A stretch of DNA of 64,000 bases from Chloroflexi bacterium UBA4730 (GCA_002404155.1 DHJC01000023.1:98733-162732), one strand, 5' to 3'. Numbered from the stretch's first letter, positions 8,652-53,734 are shown. The notes: generated by a model from the letters alone, not told the origin. Translations and numbers: made by a program.

Positions 8652-8656
8652 CGGCG

Positions 8657-17453: not shown

Positions 17454-17683
17454 TGTTGCTTCCTCCTTCGCTGGACCGAGGCATTGTGCGCTTTGGGCAT
17501 CCGGGGTGTCGAATACCAGACCAGTACAGCCACGAGTGACATGAAGATCAGACCGATCACGAGGGCCATCGCGCTCACGACGAATTCCGCCGAGTCGCGC
17601 GGCTCGAAGATCAACAGCAGCAGCGCGACGCCCGCTACGAGCACGGCGACCCGGAAGCCCGCACGGAGGATCTGCGGGTCCAC
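17450..17683 (-). CDS. Small two-TM membrane protein embedded in the ABC operon (hypothetical)
   Basis: In-frame GTG at 17683, 1 nt after the ATPase TAA. Its stop overlaps the SBP ATG (ATGA at 17450-17453). Two hydrophobic spans are FRVAVLVAGVALLLLIF and FVVSAMALVIGLIFMSLVAVLVWY. It fills an otherwise unexplained 231-bp gap. Confidence 0.45.
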   Translation of the reverse strand: MDPQILRAGFRVAVLVAGVALLLLIFEPRDSAEFVVSAMALVIGLIFMSLVAVLVWYSTPRMPKAHNASVQRRRKQQ

Positions 17684-17684
17684 G

Positions 17685-21758: not shown

Positions 21759-21767
21759 GCGCGCATC

Positions 21768-34027: not shown

Positions 34028-34518
34028 GCGATCTCGCCGTCCCGATCGAATACGACAACTGGGCGACCGAGAAGCTCGCGCAGTTCTGTGCCGCGCTCTC
34101 GCCCGAACAGCGCGCGCTCACGACCCCCGGGACGATGGGCACGATCGAGGCGACGCTCATCCACCTCGTCGGCGCGAAGGAGCGCTACGCGGCGGCCCTC
34201 CAAGGGACGGCCCCGCCGGACGATGCCGTCCGCGAGACGACGACGAAGGACCTCGGCCAGGTCGTCGCTCGGGCGAAGAAGCTGAGCGAGTGGTTCGCCG
34301 GCTTCGCGAAGGGCGACCTCGACCTCGATCGGGTCATCGAGCGTCGCGGGGCCGATGGCACAACGCAGCGCATGCCGATGGGGATCCTGATCGCGCAGTT
34401 CCTGCATCACGGGAACGAGCACCGAGCCCAGCTGGGCTCGATCTTCGGCGCGAACGGCATCGAGCCGCCCCACTACTCCGCGTTCCATTGGGGGCACGAG
34501 CTGGGGAAAATCAGCTAG
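34024..34518 (+). CDS. DinB-family protein, copy 2 (tandem paralog)
   Basis: ATGA overlap with copy 1. [13 protein letters not shown]...[13 protein letters not shown]...[24 protein letters not shown]. Confidence 0.75.
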
Positions 34519-35627
34519 GCGGGTGCCTCTTTCGTCGTGGTCACCGCGAACGCGGGCACCGGCTGATGGAATCCCTTCAGCTCGATCTCGCCGATCGACC
34601 TCGCGTCGACAGCGCCCTCGATGGCCGCATGTACGCGGCTGCTGACGAGGATCTCGCCGGCCTTCGCGGCTGCCGACAGCCGCGACGCCTGGATGACCAC
34701 CATCCCGACCGCGCCGTAATCGAACCGGCCCTCGAAGCCGATGCGGCCGAGCGTCGCGTAGCCGACCGCGATCCCGATGCCGAGCCCGAGGTCGTACCCG
34801 CGCTTCTTCCATCCTGCCTGCAACTCGGCGAAGCGCGTCTGCATCGCGAGCGCCATGCGCGTCGCCTGGAGATGCGGCTCGGGGATCGGCATCGGATCGT
34901 TGAAGAACACCATGATCCCGTCGCCAGCGAAGTGCTCGACCGTGCCCTCGTGATGGAAGATGAGCTCGCCCATCGCCGCGTGATACGCGCGCAGCACCCC
35001 GAGCGCCTCCTCGGGCTCCGCGGTCTCCGAGAACGACGTGAAGCCGCGCAGGTCCGCGAAGACGACGGTGATCTCGCGGCGGTGGCCCGCCAGGAAGTCG
35101 TCGGCCCCCTGCGAGACGACGACGTCGGCGATCTGCGGGGAGAGGAACCGGCGCAGCCGGCCGAGCCGTCCGAGCTCGTCGACCTGATCCCGCACGCGAT
35201 CCTCGAGCGTCCGGTTCCAGTCCGCGAGCTCGGTCTTCTGCCGCTCGATCTCGTCGTGATACGTCTTCACCCGCAGGAGCGAACGCACGCGGGCGAGCAG
35301 CTCAGGCTGGTCGAAGGGCTTCGCGATGAAGTCGTCGGCGCCGGCCTCGATGGCCCTGACCTTCTCGGGGAGGCCGCTCGCGGTGACCATCACGACCGGC
35401 AGGAAGCTCGTCTTTGGATCCGCGCGCAGCCGGCGGCAGACTTCGTAGCCATCGATGCCCGGCAGCATGATGTCCAGGAGGACGAGGTCCGGCTTCTCCT
35501 TCAGGACCTGGAGCAGCGCGTCCTCGCCCGTTCCCGCCGTGACGACCTCGAAGCCGTTCGGCGCCAGCACCGCTTCCATCAGCCGCAGGTTCTGCGGGAC
35601 GTCGTCGACCGCGAGGATTTTGGTCAT
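34515..35627 (-). CDS. Response-regulator receiver domain fused to a class III adenylate/guanylate cyclase
   Basis: REC: [13 protein letters not shown]...[17 protein letters not shown]...PVVMVTA...DDFIAKP. A coiled-coil linker follows. Cyclase: [45 protein letters not shown]. Confidence 0.9.
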
Positions 35628-36004
35628 TGTTTCGCGTCCAGATACGCCCGCACTTGGCCGGGGAAGTTCTTCACCTCGATCGGTTTCGCGATGAAGCCGT
35701 CGAAGCCGGCCTCGTTGAACCGCTCGCGATCGCCGGACATCACCGACGCGGTGAGCGCGACGGTCGGGATGTGCTTCGTCCGCGCGTCTGCGCGGATGCG
35801 CTTCATCGCGACGATGCCGTCGATCCCGGGCAGCTGGATGTCCATCAGGATCAGCGCCGGCAGATGCTCCAGGCTCATCGTGATCGCAGATTCGCCGTCG
35901 GTCGCCTCGACCGTGCGGTAGCCGTGGAACCGCAGCACGTCGCGGGCGAGCTTCAGGTTCTTCTCGTTGTCTTCCACGATGAGGATCAGCTCGTTCGCCA
36001 TCAC
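35624..36004 (-). CDS. Stand-alone response-regulator receiver (CheY-like)
   Basis: [13 protein letters not shown]...[16 protein letters not shown]...[10 protein letters not shown]...[13 protein letters not shown] overlaps are present at both ends. Confidence 0.9.
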
Positions 36005-39000
36005 GTCTCCTTCAATAGGGGCAGCGTGACCGTGAAAGTACTGCCTTTGCCCGGTGCGCTATCGACGCTGATCGTTCCGCCGTGCAGCTCGACCATCCGT
36101 TTCGACAGCGTCAGCCCGAGCCCGGTGCCCTCGCGAGACCGCTCGCCTTGGTGCGTCGCCTGCTGGAATTCCTGGAAGATCCGCTCCTGGTCCTCCGGCG
36201 CGATCCCGATGCCGGTGTCGTGCACGGCCAGGCGGACCTCGCCGTTCTCGCGCGCGGCGCGCAGGGTCACGGTGCCGCCGTCCGGCGTGAACTTCACGGC
36301 GTTCGCGAGGAGGTTCACGACGACCTGCTTCAGCTTGCGCTCGTCCGCGACCACCGTGTCGAGCTCCGGGGCGACCTCGAGCGCGAGTTTGATCCCGTGG
36401 CTCTGCGCGCGCTCCCGCACGAGCGTCACGGCGTTGTTCAGCGCGGCGACGAGCGAGAACGGCGCGGCCTCGAGCTCCATCCGGCCGGCTTCGATCTTGG
36501 ACAGGTCGAGGATGTCGTTGATCAGCGTGAGCAGATGTTGCCCCGAGCTCTTGACGTCTTCGAGGTAGTCGGCCTGCTGCTCGTTCAGCTCGCCGAACAT
36601 CCGCTGCAGGAGGACCTCGGAGAAGCCGATGATCGCGTTCAGCGGCGTACGCAGCTCGTGCGACATGTTCGCCAGGAACTCGGTCTTGTGGCGGTTCGCG
36701 ACCTCGAGCTGCGCCGACTTCTCCTGGATCTCCTTGAACAGCCGGACGTTCTCGATCGCGATCGCGGCCTGCCGAGCGAACGACTCGACGAGTTCGATCT
36801 CGCGCTCCTCGAACGGTCGGACGTCGATCCGGACGAGGATGATGACCCCGAGCGCCACATTGCCGCGCAGCAGCGGCACGCCGAGACCGGTACGCGCCCC
36901 GATGTCGATCATGCCCTTCGAGTCGGCGACGGTCGGATCGGCCCTGATGTCATTCACATGGACAGTTCGACGTTCGCGGTATGCGCGTCCCATGACCGAC
37001 GCGGCCTCTCCGATCCGAGCGGTCGGAGACAACGGAGCCAACGGGGAGCCTGCGGCCTCAGGCCGCTTGGACGCGACGATGCGGCCGGTGCCATCGGCAT
37101 CGATCTGACGGATCCAGCCATACTCGGCTTTGCACAACGCGAGCGATTTCTCGAGGACCATCTCGAACACGCGCTTGAGATCGAACGCGCTCTCGCTCAT
37201 CGCCGCCAGAAGCTCGCTCGTCGCGGTCTGCCGCTCGAGCGCCTCCTGCGTCTTGTTGAAGAGCCGGACGTTCTCCATCGCGATCGCCGCCTGGGTCGCG
37301 AAGGACTCGACGACCTCGATCTCGCGTTGCGAGAACGGCGTTGGCTCGCGACGGCCCAGTCGGATCACGCCGATCGGTTCGCCGTCCTTCATGATCGGAA
37401 CGGCCAGGCGGCTGCGGCTCGCGTGGGCGGACGCGACGGCGCGCATGATCGGATCCTCCAGCACGTCGGGGACGTGAACCGAGCGTCGGCTCTTCACCGC
37501 CCGGGAGATCATGGGATGCTCACTCTCATCCTCGATGTCGACGACTGATCCGAGGGGAAGCGAAGGCCAATCTGCGGAGACCGCGCGCAGCACGTAATCA
37601 GAGCTCGAGCCCTCCCGGGCATAGACGCCGGCGTGATTCGCATGACAGATATCGATCGCCGAGTCGACGATGGCCTGCAGGACAGGATCGATGTCGAACG
37701 CCGAGCCGCTGATCACGCGGAGCACCGAAGACGTCGCCGTCTGCCGCTCGAGCGCCTCCTTCGTCTCGGTGAACAGCCGGACGTTTTCGATCGCGATGAC
37801 GGCCTGGGCCGCGAACGTCTCCAGCGCACCGATCTCGCGCTCGTTGAATGGCCGGGCGTCGGAGCGCCGAAGCGCGATCGTGCCGATGGCCACCCCATCG
37901 CGGAGGAGCGGCGCGACCACGACGGCGTGGTAGCCGCCGGCCCGCGCGTTCTCAGCGCCGCGCGGGAACTCGGCCTCCGTTTGCAGATCCTGCACCGCGA
38001 TGGTCCGCGCCCCGAGGAAGGCACGGGAGCTCATAGAGGTCCCGTCGTTCGGGTAGCGCAGGTCGCTCGGGAGAGGCAACGGTCCGCTTTGCGCGGCCAG
38101 CCCCAGGTGGTCGCCGGCCGGAAGCATGACGATCGCGTTCTCGGCGGCGCAGAACCGCAGCGCGTTCTCGACGATCGCTTCGAGGACCGGCCGGACGTCG
38201 GTGGGTGACGCGGAGATCACTCGCAGGATCTCGCTGATCGCCGTCTGCCGCTCGAGCGACTCCTTCGTCTCGTTGAACAGACGCACGTTCTCGATCGCGA
38301 TCGCGGCTTGATCCGCGAAGGTCTGGACGAGCTCGACCTGGCGGTCCGTGAAAGGCACGGCTTCGCGGCGCCGGAGGACCACGGCACCGAGGGCCCGCTC
38401 CTTGACGAGCAGCGGCGCCGCAAGCAGGGCGCGCTGCCCGCTCCCGCCGTCAGCCAGCGCGAACGCCTTGCTCTGTGGGAACTCGTCGTCGGCCGTGACG
38501 TCCGTCGAGACAATCGTCCGCCGATCCAGGATCGCGCGGCCCGTCACCGACGCGCGGTCAAGCGGCGACGCGCTCGCCATCGAGACCGGACCATGGTGGG
38601 CTGACGGGACCGCCTGGTCGCCGCGAACGAGCAGCACTGAGGCATCCTCGGCGTTGGCGAAACGCGCCGCGCTGGAGGCGATCGCGTCGAGGACCGGCTG
38701 GATGTCGGTCGGGGACGCGGAGATCACCTTCAGGATGTCGCTCACCGCGGTCTGCCGCTCCAGCGATTCCGTTGTCTCGTTGAACAACCGAGCGTTCTCG
38801 ATGGCGATGACGGCTTGATCGGCAAAGCTCTCGACGAGCCTGATCTGCTCCTGCGAGAACGGACGCAGTGCTGTTCGCCACAACGCGATCACGCCGATCG
38901 CGCGGTTGCTGCTGATGAGCGGGACCGCGAGTAGCACGCGGAAGCCGCCGAGGCGTTTGGCGTCCGCGTAGGTGTACGTCGGATCGGCGTCGACGTCGGG

Positions 39001-41442
39001 GATATGGATCGTGCGCCGCTCGGCGAACGCCCGTCCGGTAGCCGATCCGGTGTGGTCCGTCCTGATCGGATGCTCGCGTTGCCACTCGCGCATGACATCG
39101 GCTCGCTCACCGAACGAAGCGCGCATCGCAAGGAGATCGCCGTCGACCTGGTACACGAAGCCGTTCTCAGCCTCAGTGAGCTGGCTGGCGTACGCGATGA
39201 CGGTGTGGAGCACGCCGGCGAGATCGAAGGCGGTCCCGCTGATCGCCTTCATGACCTCGCTGGTCGCGGTCTGACGCTCGAGGGAATCCGTCGTCTCGTT
39301 GAATAGCCGGACGTTCTCGATTGCGATCACGGCTTGATCGGCGAATGTCTGCACAAGCTCGATCTGCCGCAGCGAGAAAGGACGCACCTCGTTGCGGGTC
39401 AGGACGAAGACGCCGATGGGGAAGCCGTCCCGCATCAGTGGGACGCCGAGCATCGTCCGGTATCCACCCAGTCGCTGGAGGTCCTTTGCCTCGTACTCTT
39501 GGACCGTCTCGCGTTCGATCGCGACCCGCCCGATGAGCGTCGTGCGCCCGGCGACGCGCGGCGTGTCGTACGCGACGTGCTCGTACTCTTCGTTCTTCGG
39601 CCCGTAGAACGCCGCCGTGCGGTACGCCGATCCATCCCAGCGGTGGATCGATCCGCGCTCGGCCTCGCACAGCCGCGCGGCGTACTCGAGGACGGTATCG
39701 AGCACCGGTTGGAGGTCCTGGCCCGAACGGCTGATCACATTAAGGATTTCGGCGGTCGCAGTCTGCCGCTCGAGCGCCTCCTTCGTCTCATTGAACAGGC
39801 GAACGTTCTCGATCGCGATGACCGCCTGGTTCGCGAACGTCTCGACAAGCGCGATCTGCTGGGCGGTGAATGGGCCCGGCGCCTTGCGCCGCAGCTGGAT
39901 CGTTCCGATCACTTCCTCCCGCCGCCGCAACGGGGTGACGATCGCCGCCCTAAACGGCAGCGTTGCGGCCCGACCTTGCCCGAGCCCATCAGGGAAGTCC
40001 GCGATGGTGGCAGGGTCTTGCAGATCGGGGAGGTGGATCGTGACCCGGTCGAGGACGGCCCGGCCCTGGACTCGGTCACGCGTCACCTTGGCATCAAACT
40101 CGGTCTCGTCGATCGGACCAACGTGCGCCCACGCGGAGATCCGGCCTTCGTGGAACAGATGGAGCGCGGCATCCTCGGCACCGCAGTAGCGGACCGCATT
40201 CGTTGCGATCGCGTCGAGCACCGGCTGCACGTCCGTCGGCGACTCCGAGATCGCGCGGAGGATCTCGGCGGTGGCGGTCTGCCGCTCGAGCGCCTCCTTC
40301 GTCTCGTTGAACAGACGCACGTTCTCGATGGCGATGACCGCTTGGGACGCGAACGTCTCGACCAGCTCCACCTGCTGGGGAGTGAACGCGCCGGCCTGGC
40401 GTCGCCGGAGCTGGATGGCGCCGATGGCTGCCCCGTTCTTGATCAGCGGGGCGGCGAGGAAACCGCGGTAGCCCTGTCGCCGGGCGATCTCCTTGCCCTC
40501 GCGGAACTGGTCATCGTTGAGCGACTCCATGTCCGCGATGTTGAACGTCCGCGCCTCCCTGATCGCCCGGGTCGTCACCGAGAGCGATTCGATCGAGTAC
40601 GCGCGGTACGCCCACTCGATCGGCCCATGGTGCGCGATGAGGCTGACCGATCCGTCCTTGATGAGGGCAACGCCCGCATCCTCCACTGCGGTGAAGTCGG
40701 CGGCGCTCTTGGCGATCGTCTCGAGGACCGGTTGGACGTCGGTCGGTGAGCTTGAGATCACCCGCAGGATCTCGCTGATGGCCGTCTGCCGCTCCAGCGC
40801 CTCCGTTGTCTCGGTGAAGAGACGGGCGTTCTCCATCGCGACCGCGAGCTGGTCGACGAAGGTCTCCATGAGCGCGATCGTCGGCTTGTCGAAGCCGCCG
40901 GGATCGTCGCGCGACATCGTGAGCACGCCGATGGACTCACCGTCTCGGAGGATCGGCACCGACAGCCGGGTCCGGCGCTTCTCGGCATCCGGAAGCTTGG
41001 GCTCCGCGAACTTCGTGTCGGCGTAGTGGAAGCGCTGACCGCTGAGGGCCGCCCGGCCCCACAGCGATCCGGGCTCCGCCTCCATCCGCATGCCGCGTTC
41101 GAGGCCGGTCGAGCCGTACGTCGCGCCGACGACCCACGCGTCCGCCTCGCGGCGGATGAAGCTGCCATTGTCCGCGCCAGCCAGCCTCTTGGAAGCCTTC
41201 ACGATCATGTCGGCGACCTGATCGAGGCCGACCGCGGGATCGGCGAGGGATCGCATGACCTGGCTGACGACGGCGAGGTGATCGGCCGCGCCCGCGGCAG
41301 GGCCCGGCGCCGCAGTGCGCTTCGGCGCGGCAGCCTTTTTCGGCGCCGCCCGTACCGTCTTCTCCTTTGCTCCCGCCCTCACCCTGCGCAGTATCGGCGG
41401 GTCCTCGGCCCCTGGGCTAGGGCCGTCCGTTACCTGGGACAC
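36001..41442 (-). CDS. Cytoplasmic sensor histidine kinase with nine tandem GAF domains + HisKA + HATPase_c (1813 aa)
   Basis: Nine GAF modules of about 170 aa are joined by near-identical linkers, (I/M)EN(V/A)RLF(N/T)ET(K/T)E(A/S)LERQTA(T/I)(A/S)E(I/V)L. The H-box is [21 protein letters not shown], the N-box is [12 protein letters not shown], and the G-boxes are DTGIGI and [13 protein letters not shown]. No TM segment was seen. Confidence 0.9.
36734..40843 (-). repeat. Intragenic periodic repeat: nine copies of a 35-65-bp conserved segment spaced about 510 bp apart (GAF-GAF linker helices)
   Basis: On the plus strand, GTCTGCCGCTCGAGCGCCTCCTTCGTCTCGTTGAACAGACGCACGTTCTCGATCGCGAT-like segments occur near 36734, 37220, 37730, 38235, 38745, 39255, 39755, 40275 and 40781. 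Confidence 0.8.
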
Positions 41443-41505: not shown

Positions 41506-43638
41506 ATGGACATCTGGCAGACCCTGCGTGACCGGCTGGACTACGCATCGTTCGTTCCGACGCCCGTCTCGGACGTCGAGCGCGCCGATCTGCGCCGCCG
41601 CGACGGCAATCCGTACACGATGCTGAAGAACCCGACCGGCGACCGCGGCGCGGGTCGCTACCTGCGTCTGGACCCCGCCGACGTCGAGCTGTTCGAGCTC
41701 ATGGATGGCCGGCGCTCGATCCAGGAGATCCTCGTGGCGCAGCTCGAGCGCACCGGCGTGTTCGCGCTCGATCGGCTGGCGCGGCTCACTGCCGCGCTCC
41801 GGGCCAATGGCTTCTTCGGTGAGGAGCCGCCGGTCCTGTACGAGAAGCTGGCCGCGCGCAAGGCGATGCGCGATCCGATCGTGCGCGCATCGCTGTTCCT
41901 CCGCCGGCTCGTCCTCTGGGACATCGCACGGTGGTCGAACGCGGACCGCGTCGTCGATCGCGTGTACCGCCTCGGCGGTTGGCTCGCGTTCACGCGCATC
42001 GGCGCGTCGCTCCTGGTCGGCTTCGGTCTTTACGGGCTATGGCTGTGGTTCCAAGAGGTCCGTGATCCGAAGCTGCAGCTGGTCACGATCGACGGCTCGT
42101 ACGCGCGCGGGATCCTGGCCCTCATCGTCCTGCAGGTGATCTCGATCTCGGTGCACGAAGCGGGTCACGCGCTCGCGATCCGCCACTACAAGCGCCACGT
42201 CCGGCGGTTCGGCGTCGCGATGTACTACCTCTTCCCGTGCTTCTACGTCGACTCGACCGACATGACCCTTGGCTCACGTGGGCAGCGCATCGTCGTCTCG
42301 CTCGCCGGGCCGTTCGCGGGCCTCACTACCGCGGCCGCCTGTGCGGTGGCGGCCGCGGCCCTGCCCGGTACGCTCGCCGGCGAGCTCGCGTTCAAGGCCG
42401 CGAGCCTGTTCGTCTTCCAGTTCATCTTCAACCTGCTCCCGATCCTCGAGCTCGACGGGTACCACGTGCTCGTCGACGCGGTCGATGCGCCATTCCTCCG
42501 GCAGCGCGCGATGTGGTTCGTGCGCAGCGCCGCGCTCCGGAAGCTGCGTGCGCGCGCCCGGTGGACGCGTGAGGAGGCCGGGCTCGCGCTGTTCGGCGTG
42601 GCCGCGATCGTCACGTCCCTGCTGACGCTCGTCATGTCGATCCTGCTGTGGCAGTCGCGCATCGCCAGAGCGGGGCGCGAGCTCCTCGCGGGCGGTCCGG
42701 CCGGTCTCGCCGTGCTCGCCCTCCTCGTCCTCGTGTTCGTTGGACCGCTCGCGGTCGCGGTGATCGCGCGGCTCATCGGCATCGTGAGAACGAGCGTCAC
42801 GCTTGCGACGGCGCGCAGCCGCGCTGCGACCGCGCGCGAACAGGGGGCGCGCACGGCGATGCTCGGGCGGGTCCGATTCCTCGCCGGCCTCCCGGGCCCG
42901 ACACTCGCCGCGCTCGCGTCACACCTGCGCGTCGAGCGGGTCGACGCGGGCCACACCGTCATCACGGCCGGCAGCGTCGGCGATCGCTTTTATCTCGTGC
43001 GGTCCGGACGGCTCCAGGCGGTCGCGCCCGACGGCGCCGTCCTCGGCGAGATCGCCCCCGGCGAAGGCTTCGGCGAGCTCGCGCTCATCGACCGGACGCC
43101 GCGCACCGCGACGGTCCACGCGCTCGAGGCGGCCGAGCTTTGGTCGCTCGACAGCTCGCATTTCCAGCGCTGGGTCCGCGACCGCTTCGAGATCGCAGCG
43201 CGGATCCGCGCCGATCAGGGGCAGCGTCAGGCGCTCGCGACGTTGCCATTCTTCCGCGACCTCGAGGGCCGCGAGCTCGACCGGATCGCCGCCCGGGTGC
43301 AGACCCGCCGGTACGAAGGTGGCGAGGTCGTCATCCAGGCGGGCGAGACCGGTGGCGGCTACTACCTTATCCGCGAGGGCACCGCCGACGTCACCCTTCC
43401 TGATGGCCGCTACGTCCGGACCCTCGGACCGGGGGACGGCTTCGGCGAGCTGGCCCTCATCTTCGGCGTGCCCCGGACCGCGACCGTAACGGCCAAGGGC
43501 CCGCTCGCCGTCGGGGTCCTCGGCCGGCCGGACTTCGCGGCGCTGGTCGCGGCGTCAGGTGAATCGATGCGTGATTTCCGCGCGCGGACGGGCCATTATG
43601 TCGGTGCCGGCCTCGGTGGGGCCGTTGGGGGAGCGTGA
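41506..43638 (+). CDS. Site-2 (M50) intramembrane metalloprotease with an N-terminal PqqD/RRE-like cytoplasmic domain and two C-terminal cyclic-nucleotide-binding domains
   Basis: ATG at 41506 with a [21 protein letters not shown] lies in a TM helix, and the second S2P motif is [15 protein letters not shown], with about 6-7 TM segments. The N-domain is [39 protein letters not shown]. The CNB cassettes are [21 protein letters not shown] and [21 protein letters not shown]. Confidence 0.85.
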
Positions 43639-43854
43639 GTGGACTGCTGGATCTGCGAGCGGCCGGCGCTCGCCGCGTGCCGGTTCTGCGGTCGGGGGGC
43701 GTGCCGGGAGCACGCGAAGAGCCACCCGTTCGTTCTAGACGTGTATCGCGGCGAAAAGCATCGTTCGCTGCGCGCCCTCGTCGTGGAAGACGCGATCCAT
43801 TGCGGGGTCTGCCGGCCCAGGAGCGAGCCGGTGGATATGCCCGAGCTGGAATAG
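43639..43854 (+). CDS. Small Cys-rich zinc-ribbon protein (DUF2180-like pattern)
   Basis: GTG follows the protease TGA immediately. The 71-aa protein VDCWICERPALAACRFCGRGACREHAKSH...IHCGVCRP has the pattern CxxC-x7-CxxCGxGxCxxH...CxxC and no TM segment. Confidence 0.6.
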   Translation: MDCWICERPALAACRFCGRGACREHAKSHPFVLDVYRGEKHRSLRALVVEDAIHCGVCRPRSEPVDMPELE

Positions 43855-43986
43855 GGGAGGCGACGCCCGGGACGGTCTGAAGGTTAGGTAGATCACGTAT
43901 CAGGCGTGCCGGCGTGTATCGAGCGGGGTCCGCGTTCGGCGCACATTTCACGCAATTCCACAAGGAAAGAAAGAAGGAGCAAGGCG

Positions 43987-44976
43987 ATGGCAAGCAAGAA
44001 CCTAGGGGCAGTGATCCAGCGAGCGATCAGCGACGGGGCGTTCCGTCGCCAGCTTCAGTCCGACCCTGCCGCGGCGCTCCGCGGCTTCAACCTCACGGCG
44101 GACGAGGTCGCTGCGATCCGCAGCGGTGACTCGAGCAAGCTCATGTCGCTCGGTGTCGACCAGCGGATGAGCAAGGCGTTCTCACTCGGTGGCGGGATCG
44201 GCGGCGGCGCGGCACGCACGTCGGTCTCCGACCTGAGCGGCGGCGCCACGGCGAGCACGATCGCGAACGACCCGACAGCCGGCGCCCGCGAAGGCATCGT
44301 CGGCGACCCGACCTCCGGATCGCGCGAAGCGATCACGACCGGAAACGTCGGCGGCACCCGCGCGGTCAACGACTCGGCGCCGTTCGATGGCGGCCGGGCT
44401 AGCTTCGCCGACCCGACCACAAGCGGCACCCGTGCGATCCATGACAGCGAGCCGGCTGATCTCCGTTCAGCGGCGAGCACCGGCGGCTTCTCCGGCACCC
44501 GCGCGGTCAACGACAGCGAGCCGTTCGCTGGCAACGCCGCGATCAACGACAACATGGCAGCGGCGAACGCCGGCCGCGGCGGATCGCTCACCGGCGACAT
44601 GTCCGACGGCAGCGCCCGGGCCATCCACGACGTAGCTCCGTTCGGCACAACTGGATCCTCGGCGATCGAGGACCCGAACTCACCGGAGTACGCGGCGGCT
44701 AACGACGGTGGGACCCTCGCCAGCCGCATGGCCGACGCAGGCACGGCCGACGCGGTCCGCGCGATCCACGACGTCGCACCGTTCGAGGGCAACGTCAACG
44801 CGGCCGCATCGAGCGGCGGCGAGTTCCTCGGCGGCGACGCCCGCCTCGACCCGGGCACCGACAGCTCGCACGGCTTCGTCCCGAGCGACTCGGCGGACGT
44901 GCAGCGCGAGCTGCTCGATCCAGGCGACGACCACGGCAACGCTCTCGGCAACGTCGGCGGCGGCCACCCCAGCTAG
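43987..44976 (+). CDS. Repeat protein with an NHLP/Os1348-like leader-type N-terminal domain (hypothetical)
   Basis: ATG at 43987 with a GAAGGAG SD (43973-43979). The N-terminus is MASKNLGAVIQRAISDGAFRRQLQSDPAAALRGFNLTADEVAAIRSGD, followed by the Gly run SLGGGIGGGA. At least 5 repeats follow: GTRAVNDSAPF, GTRAIHDSEPA, GTRAVNDSEPF, SARAIHDVAPF, AVRAIHDVAPF. The upstream 27 codons of the track ORF were discarded. Confidence 0.7.
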   Translation: MASKNLGAVIQRAISDGAFRRQLQSDPAAALRGFNLTADEVAAIRSGDSSKLMSLGVDQRMSKAFSLGGGIGGGAARTSVSDLSGGATASTIANDPTAGAREGIVGDPTSGSREAITTGNVGGTRAVNDSAPFDGGRASFADPTTSGTRAIHDSEPADLRSAASTGGFSGTRAVNDSEPFAGNAAINDNMAAANAGRGGSLTGDMSDGSARAIHDVAPFGTTGSSAIEDPNSPEYAAANDGGTLASRMADAGTADAVRAIHDVAPFEGNVNAAASSGGEFLGGDARLDPGTDSSHGFVPSDSADVQRELLDPGDDHGNALGNVGGGHPS

Positions 44977-45002
44977 CAGGTCAGCGCACCCTCTACGTCC
45001 AC

Positions 45003-45031
45003 GGAAGCGGCCCCCGACCGGGGCCGCTTTC
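45003..45031. terminator. GC-rich stem-loop between convergent genes (candidate bidirectional terminator)
   Basis: GGAAGCGGCCCC (45003-45014) pairs with GGGGCCGCTTTCC (45020-45031/2) around a 5-nt loop. It lies between the repeat-protein stop (44976) and the Crp stop (45037). Confidence 0.5.
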
Positions 45032-45036
45032 CGCGT

Positions 45037-45747
45037 CTAGTACCGGATCTCGCTCTGGAGGAGCGCGCGGTCCTTCAGCTGGATGTGGCGCCGGCCGATC
45101 TTGATCCCGCCGCGGTTCTCCAGGTCCGCGAGCACCCGATTCACCGAGACCCGCGTGGCCCCGACGAAGCTCGCGAGATCCTCCTGCGTCAGGTCGACCT
45201 GGTTGCCCCCCGAGGCCTCCGCGAGATCGAGGAGGCACTTCGCCACCCGACCCGGCAGGTCGAGGAACACGAGGTCCTCGACGTGCCCGGTGCTGTGACG
45301 GACCGTCTTCACCAAGAGGGCGAGCATCCGGCGCATCGCATCGGGGTTGCGTTCGAGCGTGGTGAGGAACTCCTGGCGCGCGAGCGCGAGGGTGTGGGTC
45401 TCGGTGAGCGCCGTGACCGTGGCCGACCGCGGACCTTCGTCGAAGAGCGCAAGTTCGCCGAAGACGTCGCCACCGCGCTCGAGCGCGATCACTACTTCGT
45501 GGCCCTGCTCGTCGGGCACGGATACCTTCACCGTGCCGGAAGCGATCAGGAACACCTGGCCTGCCGCATCGTCACGGTGGAAGACGACTTCGTCGCGAGC
45601 GAACTGACGCGGACGCATCTTCGAGGCGAGAGCGAGCCGGTCGTCGGCGCTCAGGCAGGCGAAGAGCGGGCTCTCCGCGAGGAAATCGGCGATCGCCGTG
45701 GCGTCCACGTCGGCTGAATAGTGCCGCCCGGCGTCAAGCGGCATCAC
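45037..45747 (-). CDS. Crp/Fnr-family transcriptional regulator (cNMP-binding + HTH)
   Basis: The CNB domain is LFACLSADDRLALASKM...GDVFGELALFDEGPRSATVTA. The C-terminal HTH is LTQEDLASFVGATRVSVNRVLADLENRG. Confidence 0.9.
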   Translation of the reverse strand: MMPLDAGRHYSADVDATAIADFLAESPLFACLSADDRLALASKMRPRQFARDEVVFHRDDAAGQVFLIASGTVKVSVPDEQGHEVVIALERGGDVFGELALFDEGPRSATVTALTETHTLALARQEFLTTLERNPDAMRRMLALLVKTVRHSTGHVEDLVFLDLPGRVAKCLLDLAEASGGNQVDLTQEDLASFVGATRVSVNRVLADLENRGGIKIGRRHIQLKDRALLQSEIRY

Positions 45748-45779: not shown

Positions 45780-46721
45780 CTAGCTGAGGCCCCCGACGAG
45801 CTCCAGGAAGCGTGGCTTCACCTCGGTCATCGTCCGCTCGATCGTCTCGCGGTCGAACGGCGGCGACATCCCGAACAGGAACCCCTTCACTCCGACCTTG
45901 TGGTATTCGACGAGCTTTTTCGCGATGTCGTCGGGCTTCCCGAGCAGCCCCGGCCGGTTCGGCGCCTCGACCTTGTTCCGCGCGGCGATCTCGCGCATCC
46001 GTTTGTCGACCGTGTTCAGGTCGTCGCGCACCAGGACCGACCCGCCGGCCGTCGGCGCGATCTCGTTGTAGTTACGGCCGACGTCGTCGCAATGCCTCTT
46101 CAGGACGCCGAGCTTGTGCTTGATCACGTCCGCGGTCCCGAAGCCGTGCCACCAGTCCGCGTAGTGCGCCGTGATCTTGAGCGTCACCTGCTCACCGCCG
46201 CCGCCGATCAGGACCGGCAGGCGCTTCTGGATCGGGCGGGTGCCGAGCGTCGCGCGCTCCAGCTGGTAGTACTTGCCCTGGTACGTCACTTTTCCGGTGT
46301 CGAGCAGGCCGCGGATGATGCGCGTCGCCTCGCGCAGCTTCGCGAGCCGGATCGCCGGCGTGTCGAAGGCGATGCCGTACATCTTGTGCTCGTGCTCGTT
46401 CCACGCGGCACCGATCCCGAGGACCGCGCGACCGTTCGTGATGTTGTCGAGCGTGGCGGCCATGTTCGCGAGCACGGCGGGGTGGCGGTAGGTGTTTCCC
46501 GTGACCAGCATCCCGATCAGCGGCCTCTTCGTGATCGCGCCGAAGGCCGCGAGCACCTGCCAGCCCTCGAGGTTCGGTCCGGTGACGTCGCCCATGAGCG
46601 GGACGAAGTGATCCCAGGTCATGAGGACATCCCAGCCTGCCTGCTCGGCAAGAAGCGCGGCCTCGCGCATCTCATCCCAGGTCGTGTACTGCGGGTGCAG
46701 CTGCAGGCCGAAGAAGGTCAT
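45780..46721 (-). CDS. LLM-class F420-dependent oxidoreductase
   Basis: MTFFGLQLHPQYTTWDEMREAALLAEQAGWDVLMTWDHFVP...LVTGNTYRHPAVLANMAATLDNITNGRAVLGIGAAWNEHEH...LIGGGGEQ. Confidence 0.85.
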   Translation of the reverse strand: MTFFGLQLHPQYTTWDEMREAALLAEQAGWDVLMTWDHFVPLMGDVTGPNLEGWQVLAAFGAITKRPLIGMLVTGNTYRHPAVLANMAATLDNITNGRAVLGIGAAWNEHEHKMYGIAFDTPAIRLAKLREATRIIRGLLDTGKVTYQGKYYQLERATLGTRPIQKRLPVLIGGGGEQVTLKITAHYADWWHGFGTADVIKHKLGVLKRHCDDVGRNYNEIAPTAGGSVLVRDDLNTVDKRMREIAARNKVEAPNRPGLLGKPDDIAKKLVEYHKVGVKGFLFGMSPPFDRETIERTMTEVKPRFLELVGGLS

Positions 46722-46753
46722 TGCCCGCCTCCGAGCGTATAGTCCGAACGCCG

Positions 46754-48097
46754 ATGGCGCTCACCCAGGATCGCACCGACGTCGCGAAAGTCCTCGCGGA
46801 CACGCAGAAGCACGTCCTTGTCAACTGGTCCGCGCAGGGGAATATTTCGCCCCTCGTGATCACTGGGGCGGACGGCGTCTGGCTCCATTCCGGTGATCGC
46901 CGGATCCTCGACTTCAGCTCCGAGCTCGTGAATTCGAACCTCGGCCACGGCCATCCGCGCGTGGTACGCGCGATCCAGGAGCAGGCCGCGATCCTCAACT
47001 ACGTGACTCCCGCCTTCACCACCGAGGCCCAGGCGACGCTCGCCCGGAAGCTCGCGGACGTCGCACCGGGGGACCTGACGAAGACGATCTTCACGACCGG
47101 CGGCACCGAGGCCAACGAGAACGCGATCAAGCTCGCGCGCCTGTACACCGGCCGCCACAAGATCCTCACCCAGTGGCGGAGCTTCCACGGGCAGACCCAG
47201 GGCGCGATGACCCTCGGTGGGGATAACCGCCGCTGGGCGAACGAGCCGGGCATCACCGGTGTCGTGCACTTCCTCAATCCCGATCCGTATCGCTCGGTCT
47301 TCGGCAGCGATGCCCGCAAGGCGCTCGCCCACGTCGAAGAGGTCATCTGGTACGAGGGGCCGCAGTACATCGCGGCGATCCTGCTCGAGCCGATCGTCGG
47401 CACGTCGGGGCTGCTCGTCCCGCCCGACGGATTCCTGCAAGGCCTGCGGACCCTCTGCGACACGTACGGCATCGTCCTCGTGTTCGACGAGGTCATGACC
47501 GGCTTCGGGCGAACCGGGAAGTGGTTCGCGTCCGAGCACTGGAACACCGTGCCCGACATCATGACCTTCGCGAAGGGCGTGAACTCCGGCTATGTCCCGC
47601 TCGGCGGCGCGATCGTGAACGAGAAGATCGCGAAGCACTTCGACGACAACGTGTACTGGGGCGGCCTCACGTATAGCGGCCACGCCCTTGCCTGCGCGGC
47701 CGGCGTGGCGACGATCGAGGCGTACGAGAGCGAAGACCTCATCGGCAACTCCGCACGGATGGGTGAGCTGCTCGGGCGCCAGCTGAACGCGCTCGCGGCA
47801 AAGCACCCGTCCATCGGCGACGTCCGCGGCCGTGGCCTCTTCTGGGGCATCGAGCTCGTGAAGGACCGCGGCACGAAGGAGATGCTCGAGCAGTGGAACG
47901 GGCCGTCGAGCGCGCTCGCCAACGCCCTCAAGGGCGAGCTCATGAAGCGGAACGTGTACGTGTTCTGCCGCTGGAACATGTTGTTCGTCGCCCCGCCGCT
48001 CATCGTCGACGAGGAAGAGCTGCGCATCGGTGTCAAGGCGATCGACGAGGCGCTCGAGGTCGCGGATCGCTTCGCGGCGACCGGCAAGCTCGCATAG
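46754..48097 (+). CDS. Class III (omega) aminotransferase
   Basis: ATG at 46754. TTGGTEANENAIKLAR, VFDEVMTGFGRTG and TFAKGVNSGYVPLGG (PLP lysine). Confidence 0.9.
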   Translation: MALTQDRTDVAKVLADTQKHVLVNWSAQGNISPLVITGADGVWLHSGDRRILDFSSELVNSNLGHGHPRVVRAIQEQAAILNYVTPAFTTEAQATLARKLADVAPGDLTKTIFTTGGTEANENAIKLARLYTGRHKILTQWRSFHGQTQGAMTLGGDNRRWANEPGITGVVHFLNPDPYRSVFGSDARKALAHVEEVIWYEGPQYIAAILLEPIVGTSGLLVPPDGFLQGLRTLCDTYGIVLVFDEVMTGFGRTGKWFASEHWNTVPDIMTFAKGVNSGYVPLGGAIVNEKIAKHFDDNVYWGGLTYSGHALACAAGVATIEAYESEDLIGNSARMGELLGRQLNALAAKHPSIGDVRGRGLFWGIELVKDRGTKEMLEQWNGPSSALANALKGELMKRNVYVFCRWNMLFVAPPLIVDEEELRIGVKAIDEALEVADRFAATGKLA

Positions 48098-49047
48098 CCC
48101 AGCGTCCTCGCCCGCACTGGGGCATCAACCTCCCGGCACAGCACACGACGTGGCCGGAGCTGCGCGACACCGCCGCGCTCGTCGACCGGCTTGGCTTCGA
48201 CTCGCTGTTCACCTGGGATCACTTCGTCCCGCTCGACGGCGATCCGAAGGGTCCGATGTTCGAGGCCTGGGAGCTGCTCGCGGCGTGGGGCGCGCTCACC
48301 TCGCGGGTGCGGCTCGGGACGCTCGTCACCGGCAACACGTATCGCCACCCGCCAGTGCTCGCGAAGATGGTCACGACCCTCGACCACGTGACCAACGGGC
48401 GCGCCATCCTCGGGCTCGGCGCGGCGTGGCACGAGGGCGAGCACGCGATGTACGGACTGCGGTTCCCATCCACCGGCGAGCGCCTCGCCCGGATGGACGA
48501 GGCTGCGCGGGTGCTGCGCCTCTTGCTCGACGACCCGGTCGCCAGCTTCGAGGGCAAGTATTACCAGCTCAAGGACGCGATCGCCGAGCCGAAGCCCGTA
48601 CAGAAACGGCTGCCCATCCTCATCGGAGGCGGCGGTGAGCAGAAGACGCTCCGGACGGTCGCGAAGTACGCGGACTACTGGCACGGCCACGGGACGCCCG
48701 AGGTCATCAAGCACAAGCTCGAGGTCCTCGCGGCCCATTGCGAAGCCGTGGGCCGTGACATCGCGGAGATCACGCCGCTCACGACCATCCGGCCGGACCT
48801 TGTCCTCCGCGACAACGTCCGCGACGTCGAGGCGCAGCTCGAGCGCGTGCGTGCACGGTCGAAGCGCGCCGACCCGCTGCCGGTGAACCCGATCCACACC
48901 GTCGATGCGCTGGTGGACCGCTGCGCCGCGCTCTGGCAGGCCGGCGCACGAGGATTCATCCTGTACTTCATGGCGCCGTTCGATTACGAGACGATCGAAC
49001 GCATCGCCACTGAGGTGCGGCCGAAGGTCGAAGAGGCGATCGCATGA
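48094..49047 (+). CDS. LLM-class F420-dependent oxidoreductase (paralog of 45780-46721); start codon uncertain
   Basis: WGINLPAQHTTWPELRDTAALVDRLGFDSLFTWDHFVP...LVTGNTYRHPPVLAKMVTTLDHVTNGRAILGLGAAWHEGEH...LIGGGGEQ. There is no in-frame ATG/GTG/TTG between the upstream stop and the conserved N-terminus. The coordinate 48094 is the ATA of an ATAG junction. Confidence 0.7.
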   Translation: MAQRPRPHWGINLPAQHTTWPELRDTAALVDRLGFDSLFTWDHFVPLDGDPKGPMFEAWELLAAWGALTSRVRLGTLVTGNTYRHPPVLAKMVTTLDHVTNGRAILGLGAAWHEGEHAMYGLRFPSTGERLARMDEAARVLRLLLDDPVASFEGKYYQLKDAIAEPKPVQKRLPILIGGGGEQKTLRTVAKYADYWHGHGTPEVIKHKLEVLAAHCEAVGRDIAEITPLTTIRPDLVLRDNVRDVEAQLERVRARSKRADPLPVNPIHTVDALVDRCAALWQAGARGFILYFMAPFDYETIERIATEVRPKVEEAIA

Positions 49048-50261
49048 CCGTCGCGGTTCGCGCGGCCACGCTCATCGACGGCACCGGCGCCGATCCGGTC
49101 CGCGGACGCTTCGTGGTCATCGAGGACGGGGTCATCCAGCGCATCGCGAAGGCCGCGCCGAAGGGCGCGGAGGTCATCGACGCCGGCGAGCTCACCATCC
49201 TTCCCGGCCTCATCGACTGTCATGTGCACCTCGCGCTCGGACAGGAGAACATCCAGCAGCGGCTCCTCACGCCCCTGAGCCTCAATACCGCGATGGCGCT
49301 CGTGCACGCGCGCGAGACGCTCGATGCCGGCTTCACCACCGTGCGCGACGCCGGCTTCACCACCCGCGGCGTGAAGATGGCCGTCGAGCGTGGGCTCTTC
49401 GCTGGCCCGCGGATGCGCATCGCGGTCTCGCCGCTCTCGCAGACCGGCGGGCACGGGGATTCGATGACGCCGTCCGGCGTGAACATGTGGCCTGGCGATC
49501 CGGAGCGGCCGAACGGTGTCGTCGACGGGATCGAGGGCGTCCGTCGCGCGAGCCGCGAGGTGCTGCGAGCGGGCGCCGACCAGATCAAGATCATGACCTC
49601 GGGCGGCGTGTTGTCCCCGAACGACGAGCCCGGCGCGACCGGGTTCTCGCCGGAGGAGATCGCCGCCGTCGTGTACGAGGCTCACGCCTCGGGCAAGACC
49701 GTGATGTCGCACGCGCAGGCGACGCAGGGCATCAAGAACGCCGTGCTCGCAGGCGTCGAATCGATCGAGCACGGCATCTACCTCGACGAGGAGACCTGCG
49801 CGGAGATGAAGAAGCGCGGGACGTACCTCGTCGCCACGCTCATCGCGCCGCTCTGGGTGCTCCGCCGCGCCGAGAAGGATCCCTCGGCCATCCCGCCGTA
49901 CGCGCTGCGGAAGGCGAAGGAGGTCGTCGAGGCCCACCGCCGCTCGTTCCGGATGGCCGTCGAGAAGGGCCTGAAGATCGCGATGGGCACCGACACCGGC
50001 GTCGGCCCACACGGGACGAACGCCGAGGAGATCGCGGTCATGGTCGAGAACGGCATGACGCCGATGCAAGCGATCGTCGCGACGACCAGGACGGCAGCCG
50101 AGTGCGCGCGCGTCGACACGCTGGTCGGAACGATCGAGCCCGGCAAGCGCGCGGACCTCGTGGGCGTGCGGGGCGATCCGCTCGCGAACATCGCGCTGTT
50201 CAAGGATCAGAGCTGCGTCGCGTTCGTCATGAAGGACGGCGCGGTCCACAAGCGGAGCTAG
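49044..50261 (+). CDS. Metal-dependent amidohydrolase (amidohydrolase_1 family)
   Basis: ATGA overlap with the upstream gene. LPGLIDCHVHLA (HxH), VMSHAQA, SIEHG and MGTDTG. Confidence 0.85.
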   Translation: MTVAVRAATLIDGTGADPVRGRFVVIEDGVIQRIAKAAPKGAEVIDAGELTILPGLIDCHVHLALGQENIQQRLLTPLSLNTAMALVHARETLDAGFTTVRDAGFTTRGVKMAVERGLFAGPRMRIAVSPLSQTGGHGDSMTPSGVNMWPGDPERPNGVVDGIEGVRRASREVLRAGADQIKIMTSGGVLSPNDEPGATGFSPEEIAAVVYEAHASGKTVMSHAQATQGIKNAVLAGVESIEHGIYLDEETCAEMKKRGTYLVATLIAPLWVLRRAEKDPSAIPPYALRKAKEVVEAHRRSFRMAVEKGLKIAMGTDTGVGPHGTNAEEIAVMVENGMTPMQAIVATTRTAAECARVDTLVGTIEPGKRADLVGVRGDPLANIALFKDQSCVAFVMKDGAVHKRS

Positions 50262-51283
50262 TGCAGCGCTGGCGTCCGCCCGAGGGCTGGCGGCGCATCA
50301 CGACCCTCGATTCGCACGCTGCGGGCGAGCCGCTCCGCATCGTCACCGGTGGGGTCGATCCGATCCCGGGCCGGACGATCCTCGAGAAGCGGCGCTACGC
50401 GCGCGAGCACCTGGACGGACTGCGGCGCGCGATCGTGTTCGAACCGCGCGGCCATGCCGACATGTACGGCGCGATCCCCACCGAGCCGGTGACGGCCGAC
50501 GGCGACCTCGGCGTCCTCTTCATGCACAACGAGGGCTGGAGCACGATGTGCGGCCACGGGATCATCGCCCTGACCACCGCGCTCCTCGAGACCGGGGAGC
50601 GCTCCGGCGATGTCGTTAGATACGACGCGCCGCCCGGCCGGGTGACCGCGCGAGCGACCCGCGATGGGACACGCGTGCGCGAGGTCGCGTTCGAGAACGT
50701 GCCGTCGTTCGCCGTCGCGCTCGACGAGACGGTGGATGTCGAGGGGCTTGGCGAGGTCCGGTACGACCTCGCGTTCGGCGGTGCGTTCTACGCGTTCGTC
50801 GACGCCGATGCCCTCGGCGTGCCGCTCGACGAAAGCGGCTTTCGGCAGTGCATCGACGTCGGGATGCGCATCAAGCGCGCGGTCATGGCAAGCACACCGG
50901 TGCGGCACCCCGAGTCGCCTGATTCCGCGGACCTCTCCTTCTTGTACGGGACGATCCTTACCGGGCGGCCCCACCAACCCGGCGCGGACTCGCGGAACGT
51001 CTGCGTGTTCGCGGAGGGAGAGGTCGACCGGTCGCCCACCGGGACCGGCGTGAGCGCCCGTGTGGCGATCGAGCATGCGCGCGGGCGGCTGCGCGACGGC
51101 GCGAGCTTCACCGTCGAGAGCATCATCGGCACCCGCTTCCGTGGTCGCGCGTTGCGGGCAGCGACGGTGGGTCCATATGCCGCCGTGGTGCCGGAGGTCG
51201 CGGGCTCCGCGTGGACCGTCGGTCGCTCGGAGCTCTGGATCGCGCCCGACGATCCGCTCCGCGAGGGCTTCGTCCTCCGCTAG
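50261..51283 (+). CDS. Proline-racemase-family enzyme of the Cys/Thr type (trans-3-hydroxy-L-proline dehydratase-like)
   Basis: GTG overlaps the upstream TAG. HAAGEPLRIVTGG, STMCGHG (Cys codon 50549-50551) and EVDRSPTGTG (Thr codon 51038-51040, where racemases/epimerases carry Cys). Confidence 0.8.
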   Translation: MQRWRPPEGWRRITTLDSHAAGEPLRIVTGGVDPIPGRTILEKRRYAREHLDGLRRAIVFEPRGHADMYGAIPTEPVTADGDLGVLFMHNEGWSTMCGHGIIALTTALLETGERSGDVVRYDAPPGRVTARATRDGTRVREVAFENVPSFAVALDETVDVEGLGEVRYDLAFGGAFYAFVDADALGVPLDESGFRQCIDVGMRIKRAVMASTPVRHPESPDSADLSFLYGTILTGRPHQPGADSRNVCVFAEGEVDRSPTGTGVSARVAIEHARGRLRDGASFTVESIIGTRFRGRALRAATVGPYAAVVPEVAGSAWTVGRSELWIAPDDPLREGFVLR

Positions 51284-52293: not shown

Positions 52294-52309
52294 AGGGCGC
52301 CGAGTCTAG

Positions 52310-53703: not shown

Positions 53704-53734
53704 GCCTTCACGCTATCAGCGAAACTCTGAGGCG

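Follow-up and report, generated by a model that had tools for sequence, protein, structure and literature searches.

Results

Three genes at the locus

The DNA analysed here, hereafter the window, is a 64,000-nucleotide stretch of Chloroflexi bacterium UBA4730 (GCA_002404155.1, DHJC01000023.1:98733-162732). It carries three genes on the same strand, encoding a polytopic M50 site-2 protease (S2P) with two cyclic nucleotide monophosphate (cNMP)-binding domains, a small zinc-ribbon protein, and a protein in which a head of the Os1348 family precedes a repeat-bearing tail, hereafter the Os-domain protein (Table 1). All three products are annotated as 'hypothetical' in NCBI and JGI. A first-pass annotation made from the sequence alone had proposed that they form an undescribed module for second-messenger-gated processing of a leader-containing substrate. 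It had staked the proposal beforehand on three points, and on each of them we found what it expected: an N-terminal domain in the protease of the type known as RiPP recognition element (RRE; RiPP, a ribosomally synthesized peptide that is modified post-translationally), a head belonging to a leader family, and a gene arrangement conserved among relatives.

Table 1. Features of the module and of the adjoining genes, with positions in the window (aa, amino acids; ORF, open reading frame)
Feature	Position	Strand	Remarks
M50 site-2 protease gene	41506-43638	+	710 aa, polytopic, two cNMP-binding domains; ORF and Pfam/NCBIfam
Protease, RRE-like domain, aa 1-130	41506-41895	+	AlphaFold and Foldseek
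Protease, membrane core, aa ~150-430		+	holds both M50 motifs
Protease, HEAGH, aa 217-221	42154-42168	+
Protease, NxxPxxxxDG (LDG) motif, aa 309-318	42430-42459	+
Protease, cNMP-binding domains, aa ~455-575 and ~576-700		+	Pfam
Zinc-ribbon protein gene	43639-43854	+	71 aa, two-zinc type; GTG directly after protease TGA
Crp/FNR-type candidate site GGTTAGGTAGATCACG	43882-43897	.	7/10 match to TGTGA-N6-TCACA; ~100 bp upstream of Os-domain gene
Os-domain protein gene	43987-44976	+	329 aa; NF038399 head and repeat tail
Os1348/NHLP-clan (LigA-like) head, aa 1-65	43987-44181	+	NF038399
Gly-rich junction SLGGGIGGGA, aa 66-75	44182-44211	+
Acidic low-complexity tail, five RA[VI][NH]D[SV]xP[FA] units, aa 125-266	44359-44784	+
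GC-rich hairpin GCGGCCCC-CGACC-GGGGCCGC, then TTTCC	45007-45027	.	between convergent Os-domain and Crp genes; read from sequence
Crp/FNR-family regulator gene	45037-45747	-	236 aa, convergent with Os-domain gene
Response regulator and class III nucleotide cyclase fusion	34515-35627	-	370 aa; Pfam Response_reg 8.5e-29, Guanylate_cyc 2.3e-18
Stand-alone receiver-domain protein	35624-36001	-	125 aa; Pfam Response_reg 1.5e-22
Multi-GAF histidine kinase	36001-41442	-	1813 aa; ORF and Pfam GAF/GAF_2/GAF_3 repeats

A site-2 protease with an RRE-like domain and two cNMP-binding domains

The ATG of the protease gene is preceded by GGGAGG. The description of its product in the first-pass annotation, an M50 protease of 710 aa with HEAGH, an LDG motif and two cNMP-binding domains, agrees with our coordinates and with Pfam. 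Assignment to M50 was based on an HExxH in a membrane helix, the NxxPxxxxDG motif and a score for Peptidase_M50 (PF02163) above gathering; the protein reaches 43.4 bits, the cut-off being 27.2, and H217, E218, H221, N309, P312, D317 and G318 are invariant in 10 homologues. A cNMP-binding domain was defined by a Pfam match together with a phosphate-binding cassette with conserved Glu and Arg. Two domains of the protease match PF00027 with 131 bits in total, and the sequence FGELAL..PRTAT, found twice, constitutes both cassettes, whose residues are likewise invariant in 10 homologues; both domains are predicted to bind their ligand. TIGR03896 matches these sensor domains weakly (E 1.9e-9, 37 bits against a cut-off of 161).

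The stretch of the N-terminal domain that had been compared with PqqD/RRE-like domains corresponds to aa 37-75. In the window protein, PqqD (PF05402) stays below its threshold (16.4-19.3 bits against 23.4, E 0.0014-0.011), and 8 of 28 diverse family members match it at E<=0.01, the best at 1.7e-5. An RRE profile searched against PDB sequences retrieved weak PaaA and PqqD matches amid artefactual ones to symmetric trefoils, and we used the predicted fold instead. As criteria for an RRE we took a three-stranded sheet followed by a three-helix winged-helix bundle, and a PF05402 match. The AlphaFold model of aa 1-130 (predicted local distance difference test score, pLDDT, 85.9) has the beta3-alpha3 RRE topology, with strands at 25-30, 36-42 and 51-55 and helices at 57-65, 72-83 and 88-100. 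Its top real Foldseek match is the leader-bound RRE of the lasso-peptide protein TbiB1 (probability 1.00, target-normalised template modelling score 0.69-0.71) and the second is TglI (probability 0.97), the E-values of these matches being only 0.04-0.1. The domain is thus an RRE by its predicted fold while lying below the curated sequence cut-off, and it is predicted from the sequence to face the cytoplasm.

The daptide RRE-protease model NF041824 aligns to aa 47-411 (E 3.7e-39, 134.9 bits). A daptide protease would require at least 300 bits, co-located daptide tailoring genes and Thr-terminated precursors; the window protease stays below that score and its partner protein ends in ..GGGHPS, which places it outside the equivalog. 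The same applies to the YydH/LiaK epipeptide protease model (NF058609), which reaches 64.1 bits of the 225 needed and covers the catalytic core only.

A zinc protein coupled to the protease

The TGA of the protease gene ends at 43638 and the GTG of the zinc-protein gene follows at once, with a spacer of zero. Both this junction and the Cys/His pattern of the 71-aa product had been described correctly in the first-pass annotation. Across 59 homologues C3, C14, C17, C22, H25, C55 and C58 are invariant, and C6 is conserved in at least 90%. The protein is the most conserved component of the module, with 52-70% identity where the protease has 30-37%. A long beta-hairpin forms the core of its confident model (pLDDT 89), and the conserved C-terminal sequence ..PRxEPVxLPEL(D/E) is modelled without regular structure except for a helical turn of three residues. 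No meaningful PDB match was obtained by sequence or by a Foldseek fold search, and three Pfam families stay below threshold: C5HCH (23.8 against 26.3 bits), DUF2180 (15.4 against 22.2) and ANCHR B-box (14.1 against 27).

An Os1348-type head with a hypervariable tail

The spacer between the zinc-protein and Os-domain genes measures exactly 132 bp (43855-43986) and has a GC content of ~0.66-0.67, compared with 0.72-0.74 in its flanks. A Shine-Dalgarno sequence, GAAGGAG, lies at 43973-43979, 7 nt 5' of the ATG. Spacer, Shine-Dalgarno sequence, glycine run and the resemblance of the N-terminus to Os1348-type leaders of the nitrile hydratase leader peptide (NHLP) clan had all been noted beforehand, and each was borne out. 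The head (aa 5-62) belongs to NF038399, the Os1348 family of the NHLP clan, with 61.8 bits against a cut-off of 40. It matches Os1348 itself (PDB 6lk7) at E 9.4e-7 and the SonA split-borosin precursors at E 0.003, and models of related families within this clan remain below their cut-offs: TIGR03793 for the NHLP leader (13.0 against 50.9 bits), TIGR04509 for the NHLP-related peptide (21.1 against 34) and PF14407 Frankia_peptide (32.6 against 48). Leaders of this kind have been unified in the ECOD curation as LigA-like domains (PMC12353581).

The tail is acidic, with an abundance of Ala, Gly, Ser, Asp and Thr, and lacks Cys, Lys and Trp. Of the repeat, for which at least five copies had been claimed, we count five units starting at aa 125, 149, 172, 211 and 258; four end in PF and three carry the G(T/S) prefix. 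Extra, degenerate A[IV]xD units are also present, and the protein has the conserved C-terminal motif DSADVQRELLD..HGNALGN. Tandem Repeats Finder detected no DNA-level array in 43900-45000, so the repeats are degenerate and exist at the protein level. Across the loci of the home lineage the head is 64-100% identical and the tail hypervariable, measuring 142-538 aa in window-type orthologues; these tails carry lineage-specific repeats and have loosely conserved C-terminal motifs in common. Neither a signal peptide nor a hydrophobic stretch was found in the tails of Os-domain proteins.

Conservation in Limnocylindria and recurrence in other phyla

Conservation was followed in a genome-collection scan that reached Limnocylindria only (39 distinct loci from metagenome-assembled genomes, MAGs), in the best 80 metagenome loci and with our own profiles; more distant contexts come from individual look-ups of homologues of the zinc protein and of the long protease form. 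Proteins identical to those of the window occur in the Chloroflexota MAG GCA_003454595.1 (DMKT01000134.1) and in permafrost and soil metagenomes, and the relatives are Candidatus Limnocylindria. The survey of neighbourhoods that the first-pass annotation had called for gave a clear outcome: the arrangement of protease, zinc protein and Os-domain gene is kept across Limnocylindria and appears again in Firmicutes and Actinomycetota. It recurs in more than 100 independent contigs. The order is preserved in 95/95 Limnocylindria loci that reach far enough, and order and strand hold down to 59% protease identity in the 39 MAG loci and ~80 metagenome contigs. A cNMP-binding domain directly precedes the zinc-protein gene in 84 of 87 loci, and 53 of 72 unique protease-zinc protein junctions have a spacer of <=6 nt. 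An Os head gene lies <=1 kb downstream of the zinc protein in 95/107 loci, the 12 exceptions being divergent types that we sampled on purpose. Several loci contain two to five tandem Os paralogues; in the home lineage, several have two or three.

Among representatives of 50%-identity clusters, 8513 match the RRE-S2P part alone at E<=1e-3, of which 273 reach E<=1e-30. More than half of the best 150 of these relatives carry two cNMP-binding domains: ~30 have the window form of ~700 aa, and ~55 measure ~1100 aa, with an extra insert of ~400 aa before the two cNMP domains in which Pfam recognises nothing. This long form is found in Solirubrobacterales, Desulfosporosinus sp. Sb-LF, Edwardsbacteria and Anaerolineae. 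The genes stand in the permuted order zinc protein, protease, Os-domain protein in Desulfosporosinus sp. Sb-LF and a Solirubrobacterales MAG, where the Os-domain protein has 266-286 aa and a repeat tail rich in Gly, Pro, Met and Asp (and His). By sequence, then, the three-gene set is present in at least three phyla, Chloroflexota, Firmicutes and Actinomycetota. As a separate observation, Met, His, Asp and Pro abound in the Os tails of these two distant loci (L137, 10589-11389, in Desulfosporosinus; L138, 10761-11621, in Solirubrobacterales), which have DGHM and PPPGG repeats and are reminiscent of metal-binding low-complexity regions.

Sibling modules

Three divergent types of locus share the cNMP-sensing RRE-S2P and the zinc protein, the components that never vary. 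In type B (L043/44, L136) the protease and zinc-protein genes are followed on the same strand by a Crp gene, and no Os-domain gene lies within reach; the Os-domain protein is therefore not a universal partner. Type C, found in three lineages (L049, L052, L135), comprises protease, zinc protein, an M16 peptidase, an extracytoplasmic function (ECF) sigma factor, an HxxxCxxC anti-sigma factor of 138-151 aa and a free Os-domain protein of 75-99 aa. The C-terminal half of this anti-sigma factor is an Os1348 domain (NF038399 43.4 bits against the cut-off of 40; E 4e-16 to our own profile). Judged by eye, there is little room in it for a membrane segment, since the protein is short and the anti-sigma and Os domains fill nearly its whole length. 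Type D, in a Dehalococcoidia MAG (L045), encodes an FHA-cyclase and five Os heads of 65 aa, whose tails measure only 4-6 residues, together with protease and zinc protein.

Other genes were noticed at such loci. In the type D locus, predicted secreted or membrane-anchored proteins (8158-9822, minus strand, and 3066-5044, plus strand), namely a 554-aa beta-helix-like repeat protein and proteins of 196 and 371 aa, are interleaved with the five Os-head genes, and two Ser/Thr kinases flank the locus. In L054 an S2P-cNMP and zinc-protein pair stands divergent to two adjacent ORFs (1847-2418, minus strand) of 94 and 99 aa, in which decapeptide repeats of the NRNESRQTKG type take up nearly the whole length. 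A 42-aa Lys-rich ORF lies directly 3' of the zinc-protein gene in L043.

A Crp-type site and nucleotide cyclases

The spacer upstream of the Os-domain gene contains a candidate Crp/FNR-type site (Table 1). A conserved block nGT(C/T)A-N6-T(C/T)ACA keeps an almost constant distance to the Os gene, mostly 94-116 bp, in 82 of 91 unique spacers. Matches of at least 7/10 occur in 82/91 of them, compared with 22 in shuffles, and matches of at least 8/10 in 42/91, where shuffles would give 2.5. Downstream of the module stands a convergent gene for a Crp regulator, with cNMP_binding PF00027 at 81.3 bits (5.2e-23), HTH_Crp_2 at 65.4 bits (4.4e-18) and Crp at 34.8 bits (1.4e-8). It is retained in related loci at 61-90% identity, <=3.5 kb away in 39/49 of them. 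Scans for sigma-70 promoters and terminators were uninformative for this high-GC organism; the hairpin between the two convergent genes was not called by the simple terminator scan because its T run is short.

On the other side, 63 bp from the protease gene and divergent from it, begins an operon for a multi-GAF histidine kinase, a receiver-domain protein and a response-regulator cyclase. In related loci the receiver gene stays in synteny with those for kinase and cyclase, and in many of these loci the operon adjoins the protease gene, divergently or co-directionally. In 8 co-directional loci the stop codon of the cyclase overlaps the start codon of the protease as TGATG, ATGA or TAGTG. Other cyclase architectures adjoin the module in L045, L049, L135, L023 and L072-74. 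The response-regulator cyclase is the likely source of the cNMP signal. It keeps the metal-binding Asp residues, and the positions of the canonical Lys and Asn hold His and Ile; because of these replacements, activity and product are not inferable. A call between adenylate and guanylate cyclase from the specificity residues was dropped on the same grounds.

Three further observations concern these signalling genes. The module-linked response-regulator cyclases consistently have His where the substrate-defining Lys would stand and Ile in place of the catalytic Asn; other nearby cyclases (window 2994-6308, L023, L072) are canonical. The first of these, on the minus strand, is a second cyclase of 1105 aa with Guanylate_cyc, AAA_16 and TPR, resembling the cyclase-NB-ARC-TPR gene of the type C locus L049. 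The kinase has many tandem GAF domains with closely similar linker motifs, and its orthologues are 43-55% identical where the protease is 80-90% identical.

Absence of RiPP and anti-sigma genes from the window

Genes elsewhere in the window were surveyed by Pfam on 20 larger ORFs outside ~31.5-53.6 kb and from precomputed gene calls in between. HlyD, C39-ABC, radical-SAM and cyclodehydratase genes were found nowhere among these ORFs and gene calls, so that the absence that had been reported next to the module extends to the scanned window. Daptide tailoring genes (oxidoreductase, aminotransferase, methyltransferase) were likewise not recognised as such among the scanned ORFs. For a RiPP cluster we asked for a precursor with one or more tailoring enzymes encoded nearby, and for a modified product that has been demonstrated; no tailoring enzyme appears in the scanned ORFs or among the called genes of the sampled sibling loci. 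For an S2P/anti-sigma system we asked for an adjacent sigma factor and a membrane-anchored anti-sigma substrate, and the scanned ORFs and gene calls contain no sigma/anti-sigma pair. The earlier statement that the locus fits no S2P/anti-sigma paradigm stands, then, for the window itself; it does not extend to the sibling modules, which carry an ECF sigma factor and an anti-sigma factor fused to an Os domain. By analogy with these sibling loci only, the window module may work like S2P/anti-sigma proteolysis.

Discussion

Our analysis describes a conserved, uncharacterised set of genes which, we consider it somewhat probable, constitutes a regulated-proteolysis module under cNMP control, with the Os head as a docking handle and cleavage licensed by the nucleotide. 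In this scheme, the multi-GAF kinase would phosphorylate the response-regulator cyclase and the level of cAMP or cGMP would rise. The nucleotide would activate Crp, by which the Os-domain gene would be switched on, and the same nucleotide would bind the two sensor domains of the protease and open or activate it. The RRE would dock either the leader-type head or the zinc protein, which would act as an adaptor through its extended C-terminal tail. The protease may then cut near the conserved ..DQRMSKAF / SLGG junction, by which the long acidic disordered tail would be freed or destroyed. In sibling modules, the same cut in the anti-sigma::Os fusion would release the ECF sigma factor.

Second-messenger control finds independent support in the cyclase genes translationally coupled to the protease and in the Crp-type site upstream of the Os gene. 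The output of the module is probably regulatory rather than antibiotic, because in sibling modules a soluble zinc anti-sigma factor, encoded beside an ECF sigma factor, carries the same head. This pairing favours signalling over natural-product synthesis, as do the frequent company of a transcription factor and a cyclase and the presence of the Os head on very different cargoes, an anti-sigma factor among them. Modification enzymes and exporters missing from the scanned window ORFs, and a tail devoid of Cys, Lys and Trp, point the same way.

Several points weigh against this proposal. Cleavage, its site, nucleotide binding and binding of the head by the RRE are all steps that we infer. RREs normally bind extended peptides, and the Os1348 head is a folded helical dimer in the crystal (PMC7726476); the RRE might bind the zinc protein instead, through the conserved extended C-terminus of the latter. 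Hypervariable tails and tandem paralogues (L045, L092, L117) are also hallmarks of RiPP precursors. The type B loci pair protease and zinc protein with Crp and have no Os gene within reach. The His and Ile substitutions make the activity and product of the response-regulator cyclase uncertain from its sequence, and many related loci have no kinase-cyclase operon in the available upstream flank (~5-8 kb).

In a wider sense, leader-RRE recognition, otherwise known from RiPP biosynthesis only, may have been recruited as the substrate selector of a second-messenger-gated intramembrane protease. Any Os-headed protein would be cut upon a cAMP/cGMP signal, among them soluble anti-sigma factors, mini-proteins and long disordered polypeptides, with the two-zinc protein as an obligatory subunit. 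We advance this tentatively, giving it rather less than an even chance. If true, it would be a new signalling route in Chloroflexota, Firmicutes and Actinomycetota, leading from a cyclase through cNMP and the S2P to a transcription factor or a released disordered effector.

The closest characterised relative of the window protease is MpaP, the daptide leader peptidase (NF041824), which has the same N-terminal RRE and polytopic M50 core. MpaP is an RRE-dependent intramembrane site-2 protease, thought to remove the leader of a ribosomal precursor (10.1101/2023.03.08.531785). The window protease differs from it by two extra cNMP-binding domains, and its partner is an Os1348-type head with a 260-aa acidic tail, not a short hydrophobic peptide ending in Thr. 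Os1348 of Pseudomonas sp. Os17 (PDB 6lk7) has 85 aa and is encoded beside a GNAT protein, an HEXXH peptidase and a SagB-type protein (PMC7726476). Unlike it, the proteins described here have low-complexity tails of 4-470 aa and, as partners, an S2P with cNMP sensors and a zinc protein. The other match of the head, SonA, is paired with an N-methyltransferase.

An M50 protease linked to a transcription factor recalls RseP/RseA and RasP/RsiW, in agreement with the sibling loci that encode an ECF sigma factor and a zinc-binding anti-sigma (ZAS)-type factor. In contrast to such systems, the genes scanned in the window include no sigma/anti-sigma pair and no site-1 protease is evident; recognition would be by an RRE instead of a PDZ domain, and gating by cNMP. 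A precedent for a nucleotide-sensing domain on an S2P is SpoIVFB, whose CBS domain senses ATP. As for TIGR03896 ('bacteriocin-type transport-associated protein'), the family description is that of a cNMP-binding protein in a bacteriocin-type transport context, presumably NHLP export; the family is described as transport-associated and not as a protease. The work on the NHLP/Nif11 leader families (PMC2887384) makes no mention of cyclic nucleotides.

The main alternative is that the 329-aa protein is a RiPP-like or unmodified multi-core precursor, whose leader the RRE-S2P would remove, as happens in daptides and epipeptides, and whose repeats would be the released cores, possibly exported signals or antimicrobials; any tailoring enzymes would be encoded elsewhere and cNMP would only time production. 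Homology of the protease to the daptide leader peptidase extends over the full RRE-S2P length, that to YydH/LiaK is weaker, and the epipeptide and pearlin pathways are known to include M50 proteases (PMC10885120). Moreover, the long leaders of the NHLP clan have a Gly-Gly-type motif at their end, after which the sequence is hypervariable (PMC2887384), and the Os head ends likewise in a small-residue/Gly motif, ..KAFSLGG, before its hypervariable tail. The tandem paralogues of several loci, and the M16 peptidase that accompanies type C loci, would also fit a precursor. However, no modifying enzyme, immunity gene or exporter appears in the scanned window ORFs or the called genes of the sampled sibling loci, and the tails, at 142-538 aa, are strongly acidic and of low complexity, without Cys, signal peptide or hydrophobic stretch. 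The repeat unit differs between lineages, the 'core' of the type D locus would have only 4-6 residues, and the same Os domain is fused to an anti-sigma factor. We regard a multi-core precursor as rather unlikely, yet still a serious contender.

It is more improbable still that the Os-domain protein acts as a regulator or decoy, either as a pseudo-substrate in the RRE or as a partner of Crp, with the zinc protein or an unlinked membrane protein as the true substrate. Such a role for the zinc protein would suit its standing as the most conserved component, its company with the protease even where the Os-domain gene is lacking, and its C-terminal ..PRxEPVxLPEL(D/E), the kind of linear motif that RREs bind; a transcription factor (Crp or ECF sigma) is, besides, almost always adjacent. 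Yet the Os gene adjoins the zinc-protein gene in all 95 window-type loci and again in two other phyla, and a domain that occurs fused to an anti-sigma factor is more readily understood as a handle on substrates than as an inhibitor. That the three genes are neighbours by chance or shared ancestry alone, with no functional link, is scarcely credible and was rejected: order and strand are conserved to 59% protease identity, the set recurs permuted in other phyla, and the spacing is tight or overlapping.

We found no paper on this module; the related literature deals with daptides, with the M50 proteases of epipeptides and pearlins (PMC10885120), with Os1348 (PMC7726476) and with NHLP/Nif11 leaders (PMC2887384). 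The module is built from known kinds of parts, and it would represent a new pathway type if the signalling interpretation holds. In that case it would contain the first S2P shown to be under direct cyclic-nucleotide control, and the first RiPP-style leader recognition in signalling proteolysis, and would join two hitherto separate fields of study, natural-product biosynthesis and regulated intramembrane proteolysis. The family is large, belongs to abundant soil bacteria and is wholly annotated as hypothetical; the signalling interpretation offers a concrete, testable function for Os1348/Frankia_peptide proteins, and would caution genome miners against taking each NHLP-clan protein for an antibiotic precursor. 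Experiments appear feasible in Desulfosporosinus sp. Sb-LF, which is probably a cultured isolate, since it is annotated under a strain name and not as a MAG.

Other genes in the window

An Opp/Dpp-type oligopeptide ABC importer (SBP_bac_5, ABC_tran with oligo_HPY, BPD_transp_1) is encoded at 15699-21767 on the minus strand, ~20 kb from the module and with no sign of a link to it. Beyond the Crp gene, positions 45780-54484 hold four luciferase-like oxidoreductases, probably F420-dependent, together with an aminotransferase, an amidohydrolase, a proline-racemase-like gene and an F420-0:gamma-glutamyl ligase. Only in close relatives does part of this cluster keep synteny with the module.

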